64,000 nt of DNA from Bacteroidia bacterium. GTDB taxonomy: Bacteria; Bacteroidota; Bacteroidia; UKL13-3. Numbering within the stretch: position 1 is the stretch's first letter; the number at the start of each line of letters is the position of its first letter. Below the pieces are notes generated by a model that had not been told where the DNA came from, did no database searches, and was given only the letters and a program-made list of their open reading frames with translations. Made by a program: the position numbers and the translations under genes. Below, piece after piece: positions 31,745-63,687 of the stretch. The stretch spans positions 1,239-65,238 of the forward strand of contig JAGVLJ010000017.1 of assembly GCA_020049855.1 (NCBI GenBank), written 5' to 3'.

Positions 31745-31827
31745 GTGCGCACGGAGGGACTCGAACCCCCACGCCTTTCGGCACCAGATCCTAAGTCTGG
31801 CACGGCTACCAATTACGCCACGTGCGC
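31745..31827 (-). tRNA. tRNA-Leu (anticodon TAG), type II with a long variable arm
   Basis: Reverse complement folds as a cloverleaf: 7-bp acceptor GCGCACG/CGTGCGC, anticodon loop CTTAGGA, long variable arm, T-arm GGGGGTTCGAGTCCCTC. Confidence 0.85.
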
Positions 31828-49346: not shown

Positions 49347-49421
49347 GGAAGTTTAGCTCAGCTGGTTCAGAGCATCTGCCTTACAAGCAGAGGGTCGGGG
49401 GTTCGAATCCCTCAACTTCCA
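49347..49421 (+). tRNA. tRNA-Val (anticodon TAC)
   Basis: 75-nt cloverleaf: GGAAGTT acceptor, D-arm GCTCAGCTGGTTAGAGC, anticodon loop CTTACAA, T-arm GGGGGTTCGAATCCCTC; CCA not encoded. Confidence 0.85.
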
Positions 49422-49427
49422 CTCAGG

Positions 49428-55838: not shown

Positions 55839-56867
55839 TTGAGCAACATGAAAGTAATTATACCCGTTCATCTGGCCGCTGCAGCAGTTTTTATGCTTCT
55901 TTTTTTTTCTTCTTTTGCGCAGAATGCAACTACGTACAAAGGCACTATTTATACGTTTATAGTTAATAAAGTACCTGATCATTTTCCGGCTCCATTGGTT
56001 GGGTTTGTAAATATGGCACAAGGAAGCCAGACTGGAGCACAGATTGGATTTTTAAATCAGAATCAAAAAAACATTAATGGAACTCAGATTGGATTTGTAA
56101 ACAATGTCGGTGGTTATTTCAACGGATCACAAATCGGATTTGTAAATCTCAGCCGGAAATATGTAAGCGGTGTGCAAACGGGTTTTGTAAATCTGTGCAA
56201 CGATAGCTTCACAGGAGCACAGATTGGCTTTGTTAACGTGGTAAAAGATTCTATGGTTGGCACCCAAATTGGATTTGTTAATGCAGCGACTAAAGGGTTA
56301 AAGGGTATTCAGTTCGGTTTTGTGAATATCTCGAAAAATGGTATTGCGGGGTCGCAGATTGGATTTGTAAACATTGCCGATTCAATGCGACAGGGCATTC
56401 CGTTGGGATTTGTTTCCATAGTGCGAAAAGGAGGTTTCAGTGCGTTTGAAATCGGCACGTCCACTTTATTTCTTTCCACTCTATCCTATAAAATTGGTAT
56501 TCCTACACTATATACTTCGGTTATACTCTCGTTCAATCCGTCATATACTAATCAGTTTGCCTATGGTATCGGATTAGGGTCTATGATCAGGTTGAACAAA
56601 ACATTTGGATTTAACCCCGAGGCAACCATTCAAAATTCTATGGAGCAGCACACGCAAATGTTTTCCACTCTCGCTTCGTGTTTCAGCATCCGTATAACTC
56701 CAAAGACTTTGTTGGTGGCAGGGCCATCCGTTAGCTGGATACATAAAGATTCCCGTTCTGGCGAAACTTTATACAAACCGACCTATTCACTTTATCATTA
56801 TAGCTATAACTACCGCAACGATTTAACCGTAGGAACTCAGGTATCCCTTCGGTTTAAACTCAATTAA
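55839..56867 (+). CDS. Secreted paralogous repeat protein (15-residue [IT]GF[VL]N-x9-G-x-Q repeats plus a beta-rich C-terminal domain)
   Basis: Signal peptide MKVIIPVHLAAAAVFMLLFFSSFAQ; 8-9 tandem repeats (QIGFVNNVGGYFNGS / QIGFVNLSRKYVSGV / QTGFVNLCNDSFTGA / …); C-terminal about 170 aa of alternating hydrophobic pattern. Confidence 0.6.
   Translation: MSNMKVIIPVHLAAAAVFMLLFFSSFAQNATTYKGTIYTFIVNKVPDHFPAPLVGFVNMAQGSQTGAQIGFLNQNQKNINGTQIGFVNNVGGYFNGSQIGFVNLSRKYVSGVQTGFVNLCNDSFTGAQIGFVNVVKDSMVGTQIGFVNAATKGLKGIQFGFVNISKNGIAGSQIGFVNIADSMRQGIPLGFVSIVRKGGFSAFEIGTSTLFLSTLSYKIGIPTLYTSVILSFNPSYTNQFAYGIGLGSMIRLNKTFGFNPEATIQNSMEQHTQMFSTLASCFSIRITPKTLLVAGPSVSWIHKDSRSGETLYKPTYSLYHYSYNYRNDLTVGTQVSLRFKLN
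55990..56425 (+). repeat. Degenerate 45-bp tandem repeat array (recurring cagattggatttgtaaac core) inside CDS 55839-56867
   Basis: DNA-level recurrences of CAGATTGGATTTGTAAAC-like 18-mers at about 45-bp spacing. Confidence 0.7.
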
Positions 56868-59344: not shown

Positions 59345-59566
59345 TTATGCCACCGTTATGATTTTAACCGGACAGGCCGCTGCTGCTTTGCGGTTGATGT
59401 CTTTTTCATCTTCGTGTACTTTTACGCTCCAGAATTTATTTTTTTCTTTTGCACCAATCAAAACACTTTTCCCATCTTTTTTTGACATTACCCATCGTTG
59501 CGGAGCAAACTCCACACAATAGTTGCATCCAATGCATTTGTCGCGTTGCTGAATGATTGTTATCAT
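59345..59566 (-). CDS. Small 4Fe-4S ferredoxin
   Basis: 73 aa with a CIGCNYC cluster motif plus a distal Cys-Pro (AAACPV); overlaps the upstream U32 gene by 4 nt. Confidence 0.7.
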   Translation of the reverse strand: MITIIQQRDKCIGCNYCVEFAPQRWVMSKKDGKSVLIGAKEKNKFWSVKVHEDEKDINRKAAAACPVKIITVA

Positions 59567-60804
59567 GCCTGCACACTTGCCAATTTGTACAGCTTATCAC
59601 TTTTGCGAACGGGGGTATCTAATTTAAATGCACATTTGTCACCCTTGCTCACTTCTTCCACCGGGCCTTGGTCGGTGTGCAGTTCATTCACAGTTGTTTC
59701 AATAACACCTGTTGTAGGGCCGGTGATTAAAATACTGTCGCCTGTTTTAAGTGTATGCGATTCAACAATAAATTCGGCCACACCTATTTTACTAAAATAG
59801 TTATTGCCTTTCCCTATGTAAATTTTTTTCAGTTTCGCTTTCGAACCTGAGGTATCGGTCCATTCTCCTAATTTCTGGCCTAGGTAATAACCGCTCCAAA
59901 AACCCCGGTTGTATACTTCCTCCATACGCTCTTTCCATTTTTGTGCTTTTTCAACTGTATAATTACCTTCCATATATGCGTCAACAGCTTCGCGGTAACA
60001 TTGCGTAACAGTTTTAACATATTCGGGTCCTTTGCCCCGGCCTTCAATTTTTAAAACCGACACACCTGCATCCATCACTTCGTTTAAAAAATCGATGGTG
60101 CATAAATCTTTGGCCGACATAATATACTCATTGTCTATTTCCATTTCGTGGCCTTCTTCATTATCAATAACGGTGTATGTTCTTCGGCAGTTTTGCGTGC
60201 AGGCTCCGCGGTTGGCCGATGAATTTTGCATGTGTAAACTCAGGTAGCACTTGCCCGATACCGCCATACATAGGGCACCATGTACAAAAATTTCAATTTC
60301 AATCAATCGGCCCGAAGGGCCTTTTATCTGTTCCTGTTTTATCGTGTCGGTTATTTTTTTTACCTGTGTTAAGCTTAGTTCGCGGGCAAGCACAATAGTA
60401 TCGGCAAACAGTGAGTAGAATTTTACCGTTTCAATATTAGTTACATTAAGCTGGGTTGAAATATGCACCTCCATACCCACACTTCGCGCATAGGAAATTA
60501 CCGACTGGTCAGAGGCAATTACAGCCGTAATACCCGCTTCTTTGGCACCATTCACTAGGGTTTTAACCAATGTAAGGTCGTGGTCGTAAATGATGGTGTT
60601 TAGGGTAAGGTACGAACGAATTCCGTGCGATGCGCAGGTGCTTGCCACTTCTTTCAGGTCATCGGCTGTAAAATTCATAGTGGCACGGGCACGCATGTTC
60701 AGTTGCTCCACGCCAAAATACACGGAGTCGGCCCCTCCTTGAATGGCTGCCATCAGCGAGTCGAACCCACCTGAGGGAGCCATTATTTCTACTTTGCGAT
60801 TCAT
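59563..60804 (-). CDS. U32-family peptidase-like protein (RlhA/TrhP/UbiU-type Fe-S enzyme family)
   Basis: U32 signature E-x-F-x-H-G-A-x-C-x4-G-x-C (EIFVHGALCMAVSGKCYLS); start taken at the internal Met MNRKVEIMAPSGG. Confidence 0.85.
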   Translation of the reverse strand: MNRKVEIMAPSGGFDSLMAAIQGGADSVYFGVEQLNMRARATMNFTADDLKEVASTCASHGIRSYLTLNTIIYDHDLTLVKTLVNGAKEAGITAVIASDQSVISYARSVGMEVHISTQLNVTNIETVKFYSLFADTIVLARELSLTQVKKITDTIKQEQIKGPSGRLIEIEIFVHGALCMAVSGKCYLSLHMQNSSANRGACTQNCRRTYTVIDNEEGHEMEIDNEYIMSAKDLCTIDFLNEVMDAGVSVLKIEGRGKGPEYVKTVTQCYREAVDAYMEGNYTVEKAQKWKERMEEVYNRGFWSGYYLGQKLGEWTDTSGSKAKLKKIYIGKGNNYFSKIGVAEFIVESHTLKTGDSILITGPTTGVIETTVNELHTDQGPVEEVSKGDKCAFKLDTPVRKSDKLYKLASVQA

Positions 60805-60849
60805 TGCGGCAAAGGTACATTTTTCAGTTGATTGTTGTAATTTCGGGCA

Positions 60850-61581
60850 GTGATAAATTCCAATGCACATATGCCAATACAGGCTGACGGGGTTCCGGTG
60901 CTGATACGGCAGCCGCTAATGTGCTGTTTTTCTCCGGCTGCTTGCAGCAAATGGGCCGTGGTTCAAATTACCCAACCGCAGCAGTGCATCGTTGCTGAGG
61001 CCATTTACCTTATTAACAAAACATCACTGCCCGGAGATTTCGCTCCGTTGGCCGACAAATATCAATTGGCCGCATGGGTAGATGCCACCTTGCCGCTGGC
61101 TGAATTAATTCAATACATGCTTGTATGGAAAATGCAGCTTCCTTCGTTGTGGCTGCTGGCCGCTTTGCCACCTGGTAGTGAACCGTTGCAGCCATTTTTA
61201 TATCTGGGTTTTGATGGTTTTATTCTTGACTCGGCAGCAGATGAGCGCTTGTCTTCATTGGCAGGTATGCTCAGGCCGACTACACAGGTGCTTAGCTCCG
61301 AGGTAAAAGAAAAACTCGAAACCCTGCGACTGCAGGTAGATGATACCGACCATCAACTTATTGCTTTATTGGCTCAGCGCACCCGCCTTATTAAGCAATT
61401 GGCTGAGTTAAAAAAGCAGGCACAGCTGGATATTTTACAGCCGGCCCGATGGTCGCGCGTGTTAAAGGATGCCGTACTTACCGCAAAGGCAAATGAGGTG
61501 AGTTTATCCGTGCTGCTCTCGGTCCTGGATGCCATTCATTTGGATGCGGTGGAGCAGCAGTTAAAGCATTATGAGAAGTAG
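60850..61581 (+). CDS. Two-domain protein: N-terminal domain of unknown function (GC-rich, about 140 aa) fused to a C-terminal AroQ-class chorismate mutase domain
   Basis: C-terminal 100 aa (…LRLQVDDTDHQLIALLAQRTRLIKQLAELKK…PARWSRVLKDAVLTAKANEV…) resembles the CM_2 three-helix fold with conserved Arg/Lys/Glu. Alternative starts exist at 60871 or at the Met preceding LRPTTQV. Confidence 0.55.
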   Translation: MINSNAHMPIQADGVPVLIRQPLMCCFSPAACSKWAVVQITQPQQCIVAEAIYLINKTSLPGDFAPLADKYQLAAWVDATLPLAELIQYMLVWKMQLPSLWLLAALPPGSEPLQPFLYLGFDGFILDSAADERLSSLAGMLRPTTQVLSSEVKEKLETLRLQVDDTDHQLIALLAQRTRLIKQLAELKKQAQLDILQPARWSRVLKDAVLTAKANEVSLSVLLSVLDAIHLDAVEQQLKHYEK

Positions 61582-61585
61582 TTGG

Positions 61586-62152
61586 TCAATCTTCAATCAC
61601 AATGCCGTAGTGTTGCAGTAATCCGCTAAGGCCTTGTGTGGAGAACCGGGCTTTTTTAATTTTGTTTTTATCGGGGTAAATGGAGTAGTTAAATGCTGTA
61701 CGCAAATCGGCTTTTTCCAGCGTGGTTTGATCAAATGTGGCCAACTGTAAATCGCAGTTGTTAAAAACAGCCTGTGTAAAATCGGCAGCGGTAAAATCGG
61801 CTTCGTGCAGTTGACAATTGGTAAACAGGGTTCCTTTCAGTTTCAGGTTGTAAAAAGATACCATGCTCATCAGGCAATTTTCAAATTGAAGTGAAAGTAA
61901 AAATGGATTACACTGTGCAAAGGATAAACCCAGCAGCTTACAGTTTAAAAAATGGTTGCTTTGAAAAGCGGTATGGTTAAGCTTAGCCAAACTGAGGTTG
62001 CTGTGATGCCAGGTGCAATCAATAAATTTTATACCTGATAAATCAGCCTGGCTTAGTTCGCAGTGTTCAAAGCGGCATTTTTCATACTCACCCGCCAGTG
62101 CGGGAGTGCCTGTAATGGTTTGCTCAAAGGTATATTTGCTCATATTTTGCAA
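61586..62152 (-). CDS. Pentapeptide-repeat protein
   Basis: 188 aa of tandem A(D/N)LxX-type pentapeptide repeats (…ADLSGIKFIDCTWHHSNLSLAKLNHTAFQSNHFLNCKLLGLSFAQCN…). Confidence 0.8.
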   Translation of the reverse strand: MQNMSKYTFEQTITGTPALAGEYEKCRFEHCELSQADLSGIKFIDCTWHHSNLSLAKLNHTAFQSNHFLNCKLLGLSFAQCNPFLLSLQFENCLMSMVSFYNLKLKGTLFTNCQLHEADFTAADFTQAVFNNCDLQLATFDQTTLEKADLRTAFNYSIYPDKNKIKKARFSTQGLSGLLQHYGIVIED

Positions 62153-62253
62153 GGCAAGATAGAATTTTTGTGCTTCTTTCGCTCAGGCAATGTTTGACAA
62201 ATTTCGAACGACTAGGTTTAATGCACGCATAAAGTTATACAGACTGAAAAGAG

Positions 62254-63264
62254 CTATTTCAGAAGCAGTAATGAAAGAAATAGAACACTTATCAAAACTA
62301 GTTTGACAATAAAGCTTTTGAGGGTTACAAATTTGTATTCTTCTCTTTCTTTTATGAACGGATTAAGAATATTTATGATCTGAATTGTAAGAAGATAGGC
62401 CGGGATTTTTTTATACCAACTAAAGCCAAAGTAGTGGTCATAGATTTCTAAGTTTATACTTTCCGTACGGAAAGTAAATAAAGGAATTAATAAAATTCCT
62501 GCTAAGCCAAATATGATTTCAAGTGAGTTTGGAAGTTTAGACTTTAAAATACTCTTAGTCTCTTCATATATATACGTTAAATTAATATTCTTCATTGCAG
62601 AACAATCAACCACGAGAAGTGCTCCATGTATTTCTACAGGAACTCTTTTCCCATCTATAGAGCTATATCTTTCGACATTTTTAACGAACACCTTACTTAA
62701 GGTGCTACAATCATTATCGTTCAATTCATAGTCAACTACAATTCCTGAATATAGAAGTGTGGTACTGTTAGAATCAATTAGGATGTCAGCTTTAGTAAAA
62801 AGATGTTTTTTATCTCTTTCTTTGATATTTTTGAGTTTTTTAAAACCAGTTTGTTGTCCGTTAAAAATGTAGAACCAAGAATTTTTAAAACGTAACATTT
62901 TGAATTTGGTATCAATCCTAGTAATTCTAATTATTCTACCTAACAAAAGACCAAGTATAATACTTAGTAAATATTGAAATCCAACAAATGGATCCACCTT
63001 TTTAAAAATTACTTCATTTAGTGGGATGTCGTTTGATTTTTTTAACCTAAAGGCGGGGTTATTTATGTCTTTAAATTTATCAATGATTGCACTAAGATCT
63101 ATTTCAGTGAATAGATAACAGTAAGAGAGAAAAGATAAGATTACAATTATTAATCCGGGAATTACCGATACCGCAAGTAAACTTACTAAATTATGACCAG
63201 AGTTGAATTCGTTTAAGAATTCTCCATAAAAATATAATCTTCTAAACAACAATCCTGGAAACAA
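62254..63264 (-). CDS. Hypothetical multi-pass membrane protein in an AT-rich island
   Basis: 336 aa with hydrophobic helices at both ends and a K/N/I-rich soluble middle; no recognisable motif; local GC clearly below its flanks. Confidence 0.5.
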   Translation of the reverse strand: MFPGLLFRRLYFYGEFLNEFNSGHNLVSLLAVSVIPGLIIVILSFLSYCYLFTEIDLSAIIDKFKDINNPAFRLKKSNDIPLNEVIFKKVDPFVGFQYLLSIILGLLLGRIIRITRIDTKFKMLRFKNSWFYIFNGQQTGFKKLKNIKERDKKHLFTKADILIDSNSTTLLYSGIVVDYELNDNDCSTLSKVFVKNVERYSSIDGKRVPVEIHGALLVVDCSAMKNINLTYIYEETKSILKSKLPNSLEIIFGLAGILLIPLFTFRTESINLEIYDHYFGFSWYKKIPAYLLTIQIINILNPFIKEREEYKFVTLKSFIVKLVLISVLFLSLLLLK

Positions 63265-63687
63265 AATCAGGATTTAAACGACTAAGAATCCTAAAGAAAT
63301 TTCCACGTTACAGTCTATACAAATATGTCCTGATGCTGATTGTTACTTTCTGATAATTGAATTTTTTCGTTAATATCTTGCATCTTCTTGTCATCAGAGA
63401 GGAATTTCTTTCCCTGTTTGGAAACTATTTTGCTATTATCATCCTCAAAGATTGATTTTATTGTTAGAATAGCCAATACTCCAATCAGAATTCCAACCCA
63501 AGTTTCGGTAGAATCATTTTTTTTGACTTCATCTTTGATTTATAACAAATTTTGTCTCAATATTATTTTTGCTCTGTGGTTTTTCTAAAATTGAACACCA
63601 TCTAATCTTTTACAAGATACGGAAGTTTAGTAATATTATCCAAATGTTACGGATGCAGATTACGAACATTATTATGTGCACAATAGA

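Follow-up and report, generated by a model that had tools for sequence, protein, structure and literature searches.

The U32 'peptidases' have recently been recognized as iron-sulfur (Fe-S) hydroxylases that take an oxygen atom from prephenate and act on both RNA and quinones (PMC10990095). The role of prephenate as oxygen donor was shown by 18O labelling for UbiU/V, the sole system in which this has been done, and is implied for TrhP and RlhA (PMC10990095). U32 proteins have been split into twelve subfamilies (Kimura 2017, PMC5727448; Sakai 2019); according to PMC10990095, most of these lack a function, there is no in vitro assay, and the electron acceptor is unidentified. Inspection of a 64-kb stretch of contig JAGVLJ010000017.1 from a Bacteroidia bacterium (hereafter the window; all positions follow its numbering) revealed a gene for a U32 protein that overlaps a ferredoxin gene and lies head to head with a gene for a chorismate mutase (CM)-like protein. 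Sequence comparisons and structure models suggest, with a probability that we put at about 0.6, that this locus encodes an O2-independent, prephenate-dependent Fe-S hydroxylase system acting on uridine 34 (U34) of tRNA. The more general statement, that the locus specifies a U32 hydroxylase system that depends on prephenate and has a ferredoxin and a CM as partners, can be made with considerable confidence.

An earlier, sequence-only reading of this DNA had proposed a U32 protein with the canonical family motif, translationally coupled through a 4-nt overlap to a small 4Fe-4S ferredoxin, and a divergently transcribed CM protein. All three open reading frames (ORFs) were found where it had placed them. 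The U32 protein (413 aa; 59563-60804, minus strand) matched PF01136 (Peptidase_U32) with 243 bits against a gathering cut-off of 22.4 (E=3e-72), and contains the motif E-I-F-V-H-G-A-L-C-M-A-V-S-G-K-C. The stretch EIFVHGALCMAVSGKC, followed by RGACTQNC, provides an exact CX6CX15CX3C arrangement (C179, C186, C202 and C206), which the literature on U32 oxidases treats as essential (PMC11574389). The four residues coincided with the cysteines of Escherichia coli TrhP and RlhA when the proteins were aligned with MAFFT, and they were invariant among 34 homologues; the Fe-S cysteines are thus kept in this protein. BLASTP comparison with the E. coli MG1655 paralogues gave 32% identity to RlhA (bit score 157), 29% to UbiU (137), 27% to TrhP over the full length (131) and 25% to UbiV (29). 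The scores obtained with the NCBIfam equivalog models were 203 bits for TrhP (NF011996; cut-off 534), 168 for UbiU (cut-off 440) and 60 for UbiV (cut-off 275). Because the identities are low and these scores lie far under the cut-offs, the window U32 protein is no orthologue of TrhP, RlhA or UbiU/V. A Pfam scan of its 413 aa found no match to DUF3656, the domain that follows the U32 domain in RlhA proteins of ~650 aa, and neither a second U32 gene nor an SCP2 (UbiT-type) gene was present at the locus according to the ORF list and Pfam. The Bacteroides and Flavobacteria entries shown in the table of Sakai 2019 carry two U32 subfamilies, RlhA1 (long, with DUF3656) and PepU32#4. Since the window protein has 413 aa and lacks DUF3656, and since those entries list only RlhA1 and PepU32#4, we place it in PepU32#4 (the 'PrtC collagenase' subfamily), an assignment set by the published listing.

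The AlphaFold model of the U32 protein (predicted local distance difference test score, pLDDT, of 80) consists of a TIM barrel, a cysteine loop of low confidence and a confident C-terminal beta-barrel (pLDDT >90). The first of these, the U32 domain with the Fe-S motif (residues 1-312; 59869-60804), is delimited by PF01136, the cysteine alignment and the match of the model to the U32 structure 5d88 in a fold search. The C-terminal beta-barrel (residues 321-413 plus the stop codon; 59563-59844), a putative tRNA-binding domain, matched the C-terminal domain of a Geobacillus U32 protein of solved structure (4he6/4he5) with a root-mean-square deviation (rmsd) of 1.3 A; the same search also found domain II of EF-Tu and of IF2. 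This barrel aligns with the C-terminus of TrhP, and Pfam yielded only a weak GTP_EFTU_D2 match for it. A sequence search of the PDB with the U32 protein returned nothing at E<=0.01, so that 5d88 and 4he6 were found by fold search alone. No signal peptide was evident, the N-terminus opening directly with the first strand of the barrel.

The ferredoxin gene (73 aa; 59345-59566, minus strand) begins within the last codons of the U32 gene, direct reading of the sequence confirming the predicted overlap of stop and start codons (ATGA). Its product matched Fer4_15 (E=5e-12; 46.7 bits, cut-off 22.4) and Fer4_13 (E=2.5e-11; 44.6 bits, cut-off 24.5). It has exactly four cysteines (C11, C14, C17 and C65, the last followed by proline), an arrangement, CxxCxxC...CP, that fits a single [4Fe-4S] cluster. 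BLASTP against E. coli YfhL aligned 17 residues, the CxxCxxC stretch alone (E=0.014). The synthesis of 5-hydroxyuridine (ho5U) in E. coli is said to need YfhL. Ferredoxins of the YfhL type are dicluster proteins with a CX2CX9CX3CP motif (PMC8144621), and the window ferredoxin is not of this type.

A species survey, in which one genome per species was scanned, yielded 80 U32 loci at 65-82% identity, ranging from Ferruginibacter and Cyclobacteriaceae to Flavobacterium, Myroides, Capnocytophaga and Chryseobacterium; matches in protein databases showed 68-83% identity. With 65-96% identity overall, the U32 protein is one of the best-conserved proteins of the phylum, in the manner of a housekeeping translation factor. 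When the window ferredoxin was compared by tblastn with the 80 species loci, a homologue (47-83% identity) directly followed the U32 gene, on its strand, in 74 of the 79 testable loci, which span Chitinophagaceae and Cyclobacteriaceae to Flavobacteriaceae. Among the remaining loci, four from Capnocytophaga had the ferredoxin 2-3 kb off and one had none in its flank; the eightieth ended at the U32 gene and could not be scored. The genes flanking the pair were wholly different between lineages. Sequence comparison shows that the U32 protein has a dedicated single-cluster ferredoxin, with which it shares a predicted transcript and to which it is translationally coupled, and that the two form a conserved core, a phylum-wide unit in Bacteroidota.

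TrhO (YceA) is an O2-dependent tRNA uridine-34 hydroxylase. In Flavobacterium sp. P21 (locus L059), the gene upstream of the U32-ferredoxin pair encodes a protein with UPF0176_N, Rhodanese and Rhodanese_C domains that scored 265.6 bits on the NCBIfam TrhO equivalog (cut-off 170). This TrhO carries ~90 extra C-terminal residues, which share 56% identity (E=5e-30) with the barrel at the C-terminus of the U32 protein encoded next to it and 40% identity (E=4e-19) with that of the U32 protein in the window. Clustering of flanking ORFs placed a trhO gene directly upstream of U32, on the same strand and often with a gap of 0-14 nt, in 47 of the 80 loci (41 Flavobacterium, 4 Myroides, 2 unclassified), and the extra barrel was present on 46 of these 47 TrhO proteins. 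No description of this domain fusion was found in the literature searched. Since a U34 enzyme has acquired the putative substrate-binding barrel of this U32 protein and adjoins it upstream, tRNA U34 is the substrate suggested; the sequence-only reading had left the choice between an RNA and a quinone or other hydroxylation, and the TrhO operons, together with the shared domain, speak most strongly for tRNA U34 and favour it over rRNA or quinones. Taken by itself, the assignment of tRNA U34 as the specific substrate stands at about even odds.

Some further observations touch on the TrhO proteins and on the substrate. TrhO proteins with the barrel measure ~452 aa (L059:2851-4209; also, for example, L031, L086 and L088), and the TrhO of the Flavobacterium locus L070, with 345 aa, is without it. 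Some U32 matches in Flavobacterium and Myroides were 1500-1770 nt long; an insertion in the U32 gene was considered and discarded, the C-terminal domain of the upstream TrhO having been merged into the tblastn match. The window contains genes for tRNA-Leu(UAG) (31745-31827, minus strand) and tRNA-Val(UAC) (49347-49422, plus strand). Both tRNAs bear a 5-oxyuridine derivative (xo5U) at position 34 in E. coli and Bacillus subtilis, and potential substrates of the proposed hydroxylase are therefore encoded in its vicinity. In the Sakai 2019 table, Bacteroides, Porphyromonas and Capnocytophaga appear with trmR, a homologue of the ho5U methyltransferase gene, and without trhO, trhP or trhP1/2; in the passages concerned, that work proposed that PepU32#1 and PepU32#2, not PepU32#4, fill the hydroxylase gap. 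The missing U34 hydroxylase of trmR-bearing Bacteroidales is a gap that PepU32#4 would fill.

The third gene had been read as starting at 60850, some 60 bp from the U32 gene. Its ORF is indeed open from a GTG at 60850 to 61581 (243 aa), and the public gene model and the homologues begin at an ATG at 60871. The divergent arrangement therefore holds, with a refined start that gives a protein of 236 aa (60871-61581, plus strand) and an intergenic region of 66 bp (60805-60870) as read from the sequence. Residues 143-236, which with the stop codon occupy 61297-61581, bear out the AroQ-type CM domain that had been predicted at the C-terminus: CM_2 (PF01817) matched residues 159-237 of the 243-aa ORF with 50.6 bits (cut-off 27; E=2.4e-13), and in an AlphaFold model built from 20 family members this domain (pLDDT >90) showed the three-helix fold and superposed on E. 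coli CM (1ecm) with an rmsd of 1.2-1.3 A over 85-87 columns and a template-modelling (TM) score of 0.85-0.87. Among the 20 members R153, R170, K181 and W194 were invariant and R193 nearly so (at least 90%). The equivalents of E. coli Arg11', Arg28 and Lys39 are thus invariant and that of Arg51 nearly invariant, the position of Glu52 is occupied by an invariant Trp, that of Ser84 is changed, and that of Gln88 holds Gln in the window protein, Gln or His in most relatives and Leu in one. No NCBIfam CM equivalog cut-off was reached. [quoted passage not shown]

A word-index search found seven relatives of the CM-like protein, and a full profile search added about 20 cluster representatives of 217-330 aa in which the match reached upstream of the CM domain. 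The same profile search listed proteins of 335-374 aa, and both of those scanned (P0178 and P0226) consisted of DAHP_synth_1 plus CM_2, the build of the bifunctional DAH7PS-CM of Bacteroidota. Residues 1-142 of the CM-like protein (60871-61296) gave no Pfam match, including to the type I-beta DAH7PS domain DAHP_synth_1 (PF00793). When compared with hhalign, the CM-like family and the DAH7PS-CM enzymes were collinear over residues 43-236 (E=1.9e-31), and the N-terminal domain alone aligned with the DAH7PS domain alone (Prob 93%, E=2.7e-7), residues 55-129 falling on positions 161-250 of P0178; this last alignment, to the C-terminal part of the barrel, covers only ~75 columns. An LGFDG motif at the end of the barrel is common to both. 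Conservation is lost at the metal-ligand positions (DPSH, E-x-H), the barrel lacks its N-terminal half, and the model of the domain shows four beta/alpha units, with residues 1-44 poorly conserved. Because of this homology, the lost ligands, the missing half and the four remaining units, the N-terminal domain is a degenerate DAH7PS half-barrel, a remnant rather than an enzyme. The whole protein is then a fast-evolving, truncated paralogue of the bifunctional DAH7PS-CM of Bacteroidota with an intact CM domain, and a clean example of a bifunctional enzyme decaying to a specialized single-activity protein that retains half of its dead domain. In the P. gingivalis DAH7PS-CM, removal of the barrel raises the Km for chorismate tenfold, and barrel residues around beta6-alpha6 touch helix 1 of the CM domain (PMC12202928). 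It is reasonable, on this ground, to suppose that the half-barrel is kept as a scaffold for the CM domain. Neither a full DAH7PS-CM nor TrhO is encoded in the 64-kb window.

The CM-like gene lay divergently beside U32, or U32 and ferredoxin, in seven of the eight lineages with visible neighbours: the window clade (L001-L006), L007, L096, L017, L097/L098, L100 and the contig of P0184. The one exception was P0143, the most divergent CM-like member, which had no adjacent U32 gene on its 3.5-kb contig. The distance between the two genes varied from 39 to 186 bp across lineages, and the outer neighbours were all different (a TonB-dependent receptor and a pentapeptide protein; YceG and UvrC; an NHL-repeat protein and an S41 peptidase; molybdopterin genes; others). 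Where the U32 protein was 96% identical to that of the window, the CM-like protein was 76-81% identical; at 88-90% for U32 the corresponding values were 34-39%, and at 75-80% they were 24-30%, the CM-like protein evolving three to four times faster than U32. Since the arrangement outlasts strong divergence of the CM-like protein and reshuffled flanks, it argues for a functional link between CM and U32. The mismatch in rate is conspicuous in L007 (1151-1876) and L096 (1435-2088), whose CM-like genes encode products only 34-39% identical to that of 60871-61581 next to U32 proteins of 88-90%; it suggests that the CM-like gene either evolves at a strongly raised rate or was exchanged while its position stayed fixed.

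A mechanism for the locus can be sketched from published work on UbiU/V, TrhP and RlhA (PMC10990095, PMC6599085, PMC5727448). The CM protein would make prephenate from chorismate near the place of use, and the U32 protein would hold the tRNA through its C-terminal beta-barrel and oxidize the wobble U34 by two electrons to ho5U, with prephenate as oxygen donor. Decarboxylation of prephenate would deliver the hydroxyl, giving ho5U, phenylpyruvate and CO2, while the two electrons would leave the base through the U32 cluster to the partner ferredoxin, which would be the 'yet unidentified electron acceptor' of PMC10990095. The ho5U34 might then be methylated to 5-methoxyuridine (mo5U) by the Bacteroidetes TrmR homologue. 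The sequence-only reading had spoken of a 'self-contained' RNA hydroxylation module; the in silico evidence supports a module, and 'self-contained' overstates it, chorismate still having to come from the shikimate pathway. A wider proposal is more tentative and, in our view, somewhat short of even odds: that PepU32#4 proteins, PrtC included, are the O2-independent tRNA U34 hydroxylases of Bacteroidota, that the operon ferredoxin is their electron acceptor, and that some lineages domesticated a truncated DAH7PS-CM as a private supplier of prephenate, possibly with channelling.

Several points weigh against a tRNA U34 hydroxylase system of this kind. The window U32 falls under the TrhP equivalog cut-off and is about equally distant, by BLASTP, from RlhA, UbiU and TrhP, the TrhO link is confined to Flavobacterium and Myroides, one Bacteroidota family, and thus to few independent evolutionary events, and the searchable literature yielded no account of mo5U or ho5U in tRNA from Bacteroidetes. 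The equal distances and the narrow range of the TrhO link lend some weight to the view that the prephenate/Fe-S/ferredoxin chemistry is the same and the substrate another one, either a different RNA position or a small aromatic metabolite, given that PepU32#4 has no assigned function and that known U32 enzymes serve RNA as well as quinones. We consider this unlikely, though worth keeping in mind. In the Bacteroides and Flavobacteria entries shown in Sakai 2019, a separate RlhA1 is listed for 5-hydroxycytidine (ho5C) of 23S rRNA, and the window protein has no DUF3656 and no UbiT- or UbiV-like partner. Its C-terminal barrel is of the TrhP/TrhP1 class and of the translation-factor type, it is exactly this domain that the tRNA enzyme TrhO acquired, and conservation of the gene at 65-96% resembles that of a gene for a housekeeping translation factor. 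That the protein is a collagenase-type peptidase, whether secreted or cell-associated, as first published for PrtC, is very improbable. The P. gingivalis PrtC, classed in PepU32#4 (PMC5727448; Sakai 2019), was indeed reported to degrade collagen (PMC5727448), which also counts against the hydroxylase proposal, and public annotation calls the window protein a 'U32 family peptidase / putative protease'; against this stand the invariant Fe-S cysteine motif, the translationally coupled ferredoxin, the operons and the domain in common with TrhO, the lack of an evident signal peptide, and conservation at a housekeeping level.

The remaining doubts concern the CM-like partner. Next to U32 it was found in a single one of the 80 species loci (L017) and was absent from the other 79, and so is a rare accessory that the core system does not require; the three genes do stay together in relatives, CM beside U32 in the seven lineages and ferredoxin beside U32 in the 74 loci. 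The carrier lineages are, moreover, related (U32 75-96% identical), so that part of the CM-U32 synteny was possibly inherited. That most Bacteroidota have the U32-ferredoxin pair without a CM gene, that the carriers are related to each other and that the local G+C content, at 0.50 against 0.39, is out of line and might betray a recent insertion, are what one would expect if an ordinary CM gene of aromatic amino acid biosynthesis happened to lie beside a housekeeping U32-ferredoxin operon. Such an adjacency without functional meaning is improbable, given the same divergent layout in seven of eight lineages, with gaps of 39-186 bp, other neighbours that differ and CM identity down to 24%, and given that the CM-like family is a specialized truncated paralogue, not the housekeeping bifunctional enzyme. 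The CM-like protein might also be non-catalytic, binding chorismate or prephenate as an accessory, either to hand the ligand to U32 or to sense it on behalf of U32, comparable to the regulatory CM-like domain of Bacillus DAH7PS or to UbiT. The NCBIfam result, the invariant Trp at the Glu52 position, the altered Ser84 position, the rapid evolution relative to U32, the half-barrel devoid of DAH7PS catalytic residues, and the mainly regulatory role of the N-terminal CM domains of other DAH7PS enzymes (PMC12202928) all fit such a role. We think it doubtful, as the equivalents of Arg11, Arg28, Lys39 and Arg51 are conserved, the fold superposes on 1ecm at 1.2-1.3 A, RY or RW occurs at the Glu52 position of full-length DAH7PS-CM as well, and enzymes of the same architecture from P. 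gingivalis and Prevotella are active. The reading favoured here remains a prephenate-dependent hydroxylase system in which the CM-like protein is catalytic.

That uncharacterized U32 subfamilies are prephenate-dependent hydroxylases has already been published as a hypothesis (PMC10990095; in part Sakai 2019). When the full-text literature was searched for U32 in connection with prephenate and ferredoxin, or for linkage of U32 and chorismate mutase, known papers alone were returned. The phylum-wide PepU32#4-ferredoxin operon appears to be new, as do the TrhO-U32-ferredoxin operons with their shared domain, which give the PrtC subfamily a likely substrate, and the physical linkage of a dedicated truncated DAH7PS-CM paralogue to a U32 enzyme. 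The coupled, conserved ferredoxin is a strong candidate redox partner for reconstituting U32 activity. The CM-U32 linkage ties U32 to prephenate on independent genomic grounds, outside E. coli genetics, and would, if true, be the first gene-neighbourhood evidence for this tie; the TrhO-U32-ferredoxin operons and the RNA-binding-type domain provide a concrete substrate hypothesis for PepU32#4. Were the proposal correct, it would fill the U34 hydroxylase gap of anaerobic Bacteroidales that have a trmR homologue, and 'prtC collagenase' genes would have to be read differently in microbiome and virulence studies, for example in a 2025 Nat Microbiol paper. The locus opens to experiment the questions of which molecule accepts the electrons, what PepU32#4/PrtC does and how general prephenate is as oxygen donor.

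The intergenic region contains two promoter-like motifs. TACCTTTG, on the minus strand (60817-60810), is a perfect match to the Bacteroidota -7 promoter motif (TAnnTTTG) and ends 5 nt before the ATG of the U32 gene; TAATTTCG, on the plus strand (60838-60845), is a Bacteroidota-type -7 promoter-like match 25 nt before the ATG of the CM-like gene. This promoter-like block is kept in close relatives. A -7-like motif so near the U32 start codon would imply a leaderless or near-leaderless U32 mRNA. In public annotation the three genes appear as 'chorismate mutase', 'U32 family peptidase' and 'ferredoxin'. Against a window mean of 0.39, the G+C content reaches a plateau of 0.49-0.51 at 60450-61650, which takes in the 5′ third of the U32 gene, the intergenic region and all of the CM-like gene (0.498); the cause could lie in amino-acid composition or in the CM-like gene being of foreign origin.

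Four nucleotides beyond the CM-like gene, and convergent to it, lies a gene for a pentapeptide-repeat protein (188 aa; 61586-62152, minus strand; Pentapeptide_4, E=3e-25). It was considered as a fourth member of the module and rejected: its product is 83-84% identical in the closest relatives, L001 and L005, and the gene is absent from L007, L096, L017, L097 and L100. At 62250-63600 the G+C content is very low (0.27-0.31), and this stretch, which includes an ORF for a 336-aa predicted membrane protein with no significant Pfam match (62254-63264, minus strand), may be an island or recently acquired DNA. Another ORF, of 342 aa (55839-56867, plus strand), carries about a dozen 'G-x-Q-I-G-F-V-N' repeats after a signal-like N-terminus.

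Among described systems, TrhP (YegQ) of E. coli and TrhP1/TrhP2 (YrrO/YrrN) of B. subtilis are like the window U32 protein in combining a TIM barrel, the CX6CX15CX3C motif and a C-terminal beta-barrel. They carry out prephenate-dependent hydroxylation of tRNA U34, and dependence on prephenate is predicted for the window protein too; need of a ferredoxin is a further likely point in common. The latter is only 27% identical to TrhP, lies under the NCBIfam cut-off, belongs to another subfamily (PepU32#4) and is without the ~50-aa insertion of TrhP; its ferredoxin is a single-cluster Fer4_13/15 protein encoded in the operon, whereas YfhL is a dicluster protein encoded by an unlinked gene in E. coli, and in the window lineage a CM gene is physically linked. 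TrhO, which in Flavobacterium and Myroides lies upstream of the orthologous U32-ferredoxin pair, has the same C-terminal beta-barrel, although its catalytic fold (rhodanese) and chemistry are unrelated to those of the window U32. The P. gingivalis PrtC falls in the same PepU32#4 subfamily by published classification, and its published function is proteolysis, whereas the context of ferredoxin, TrhO and CM genes argues for Fe-S hydroxylase chemistry. The UbiU/UbiV/UbiT system of anaerobic ubiquinone hydroxylation resembles the window locus in that U32 Fe-S proteins are encoded in a small dedicated gene cluster. The window U32 is 29% identical to UbiU and comes without a UbiV-like second U32 or the SCP2 protein UbiT; its partners are a ferredoxin and a CM, and its substrate is probably RNA. 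As for the CM-like protein, its CM domain and the preceding LGFDG region are homologous to those of the DAH7PS-CM of P. gingivalis and Prevotella nigrescens, and it shares with the Bacteroidota-type fusions compared here the unusual R-W/Y in place of R-E. It differs from these enzymes in size (217-330 aa in the family against ~360), in having lost the N-terminal half-barrel and the ligands for the metal and for phosphoenolpyruvate, and in the linkage of its gene to the U32-ferredoxin pair rather than to aromatic amino acid genes.

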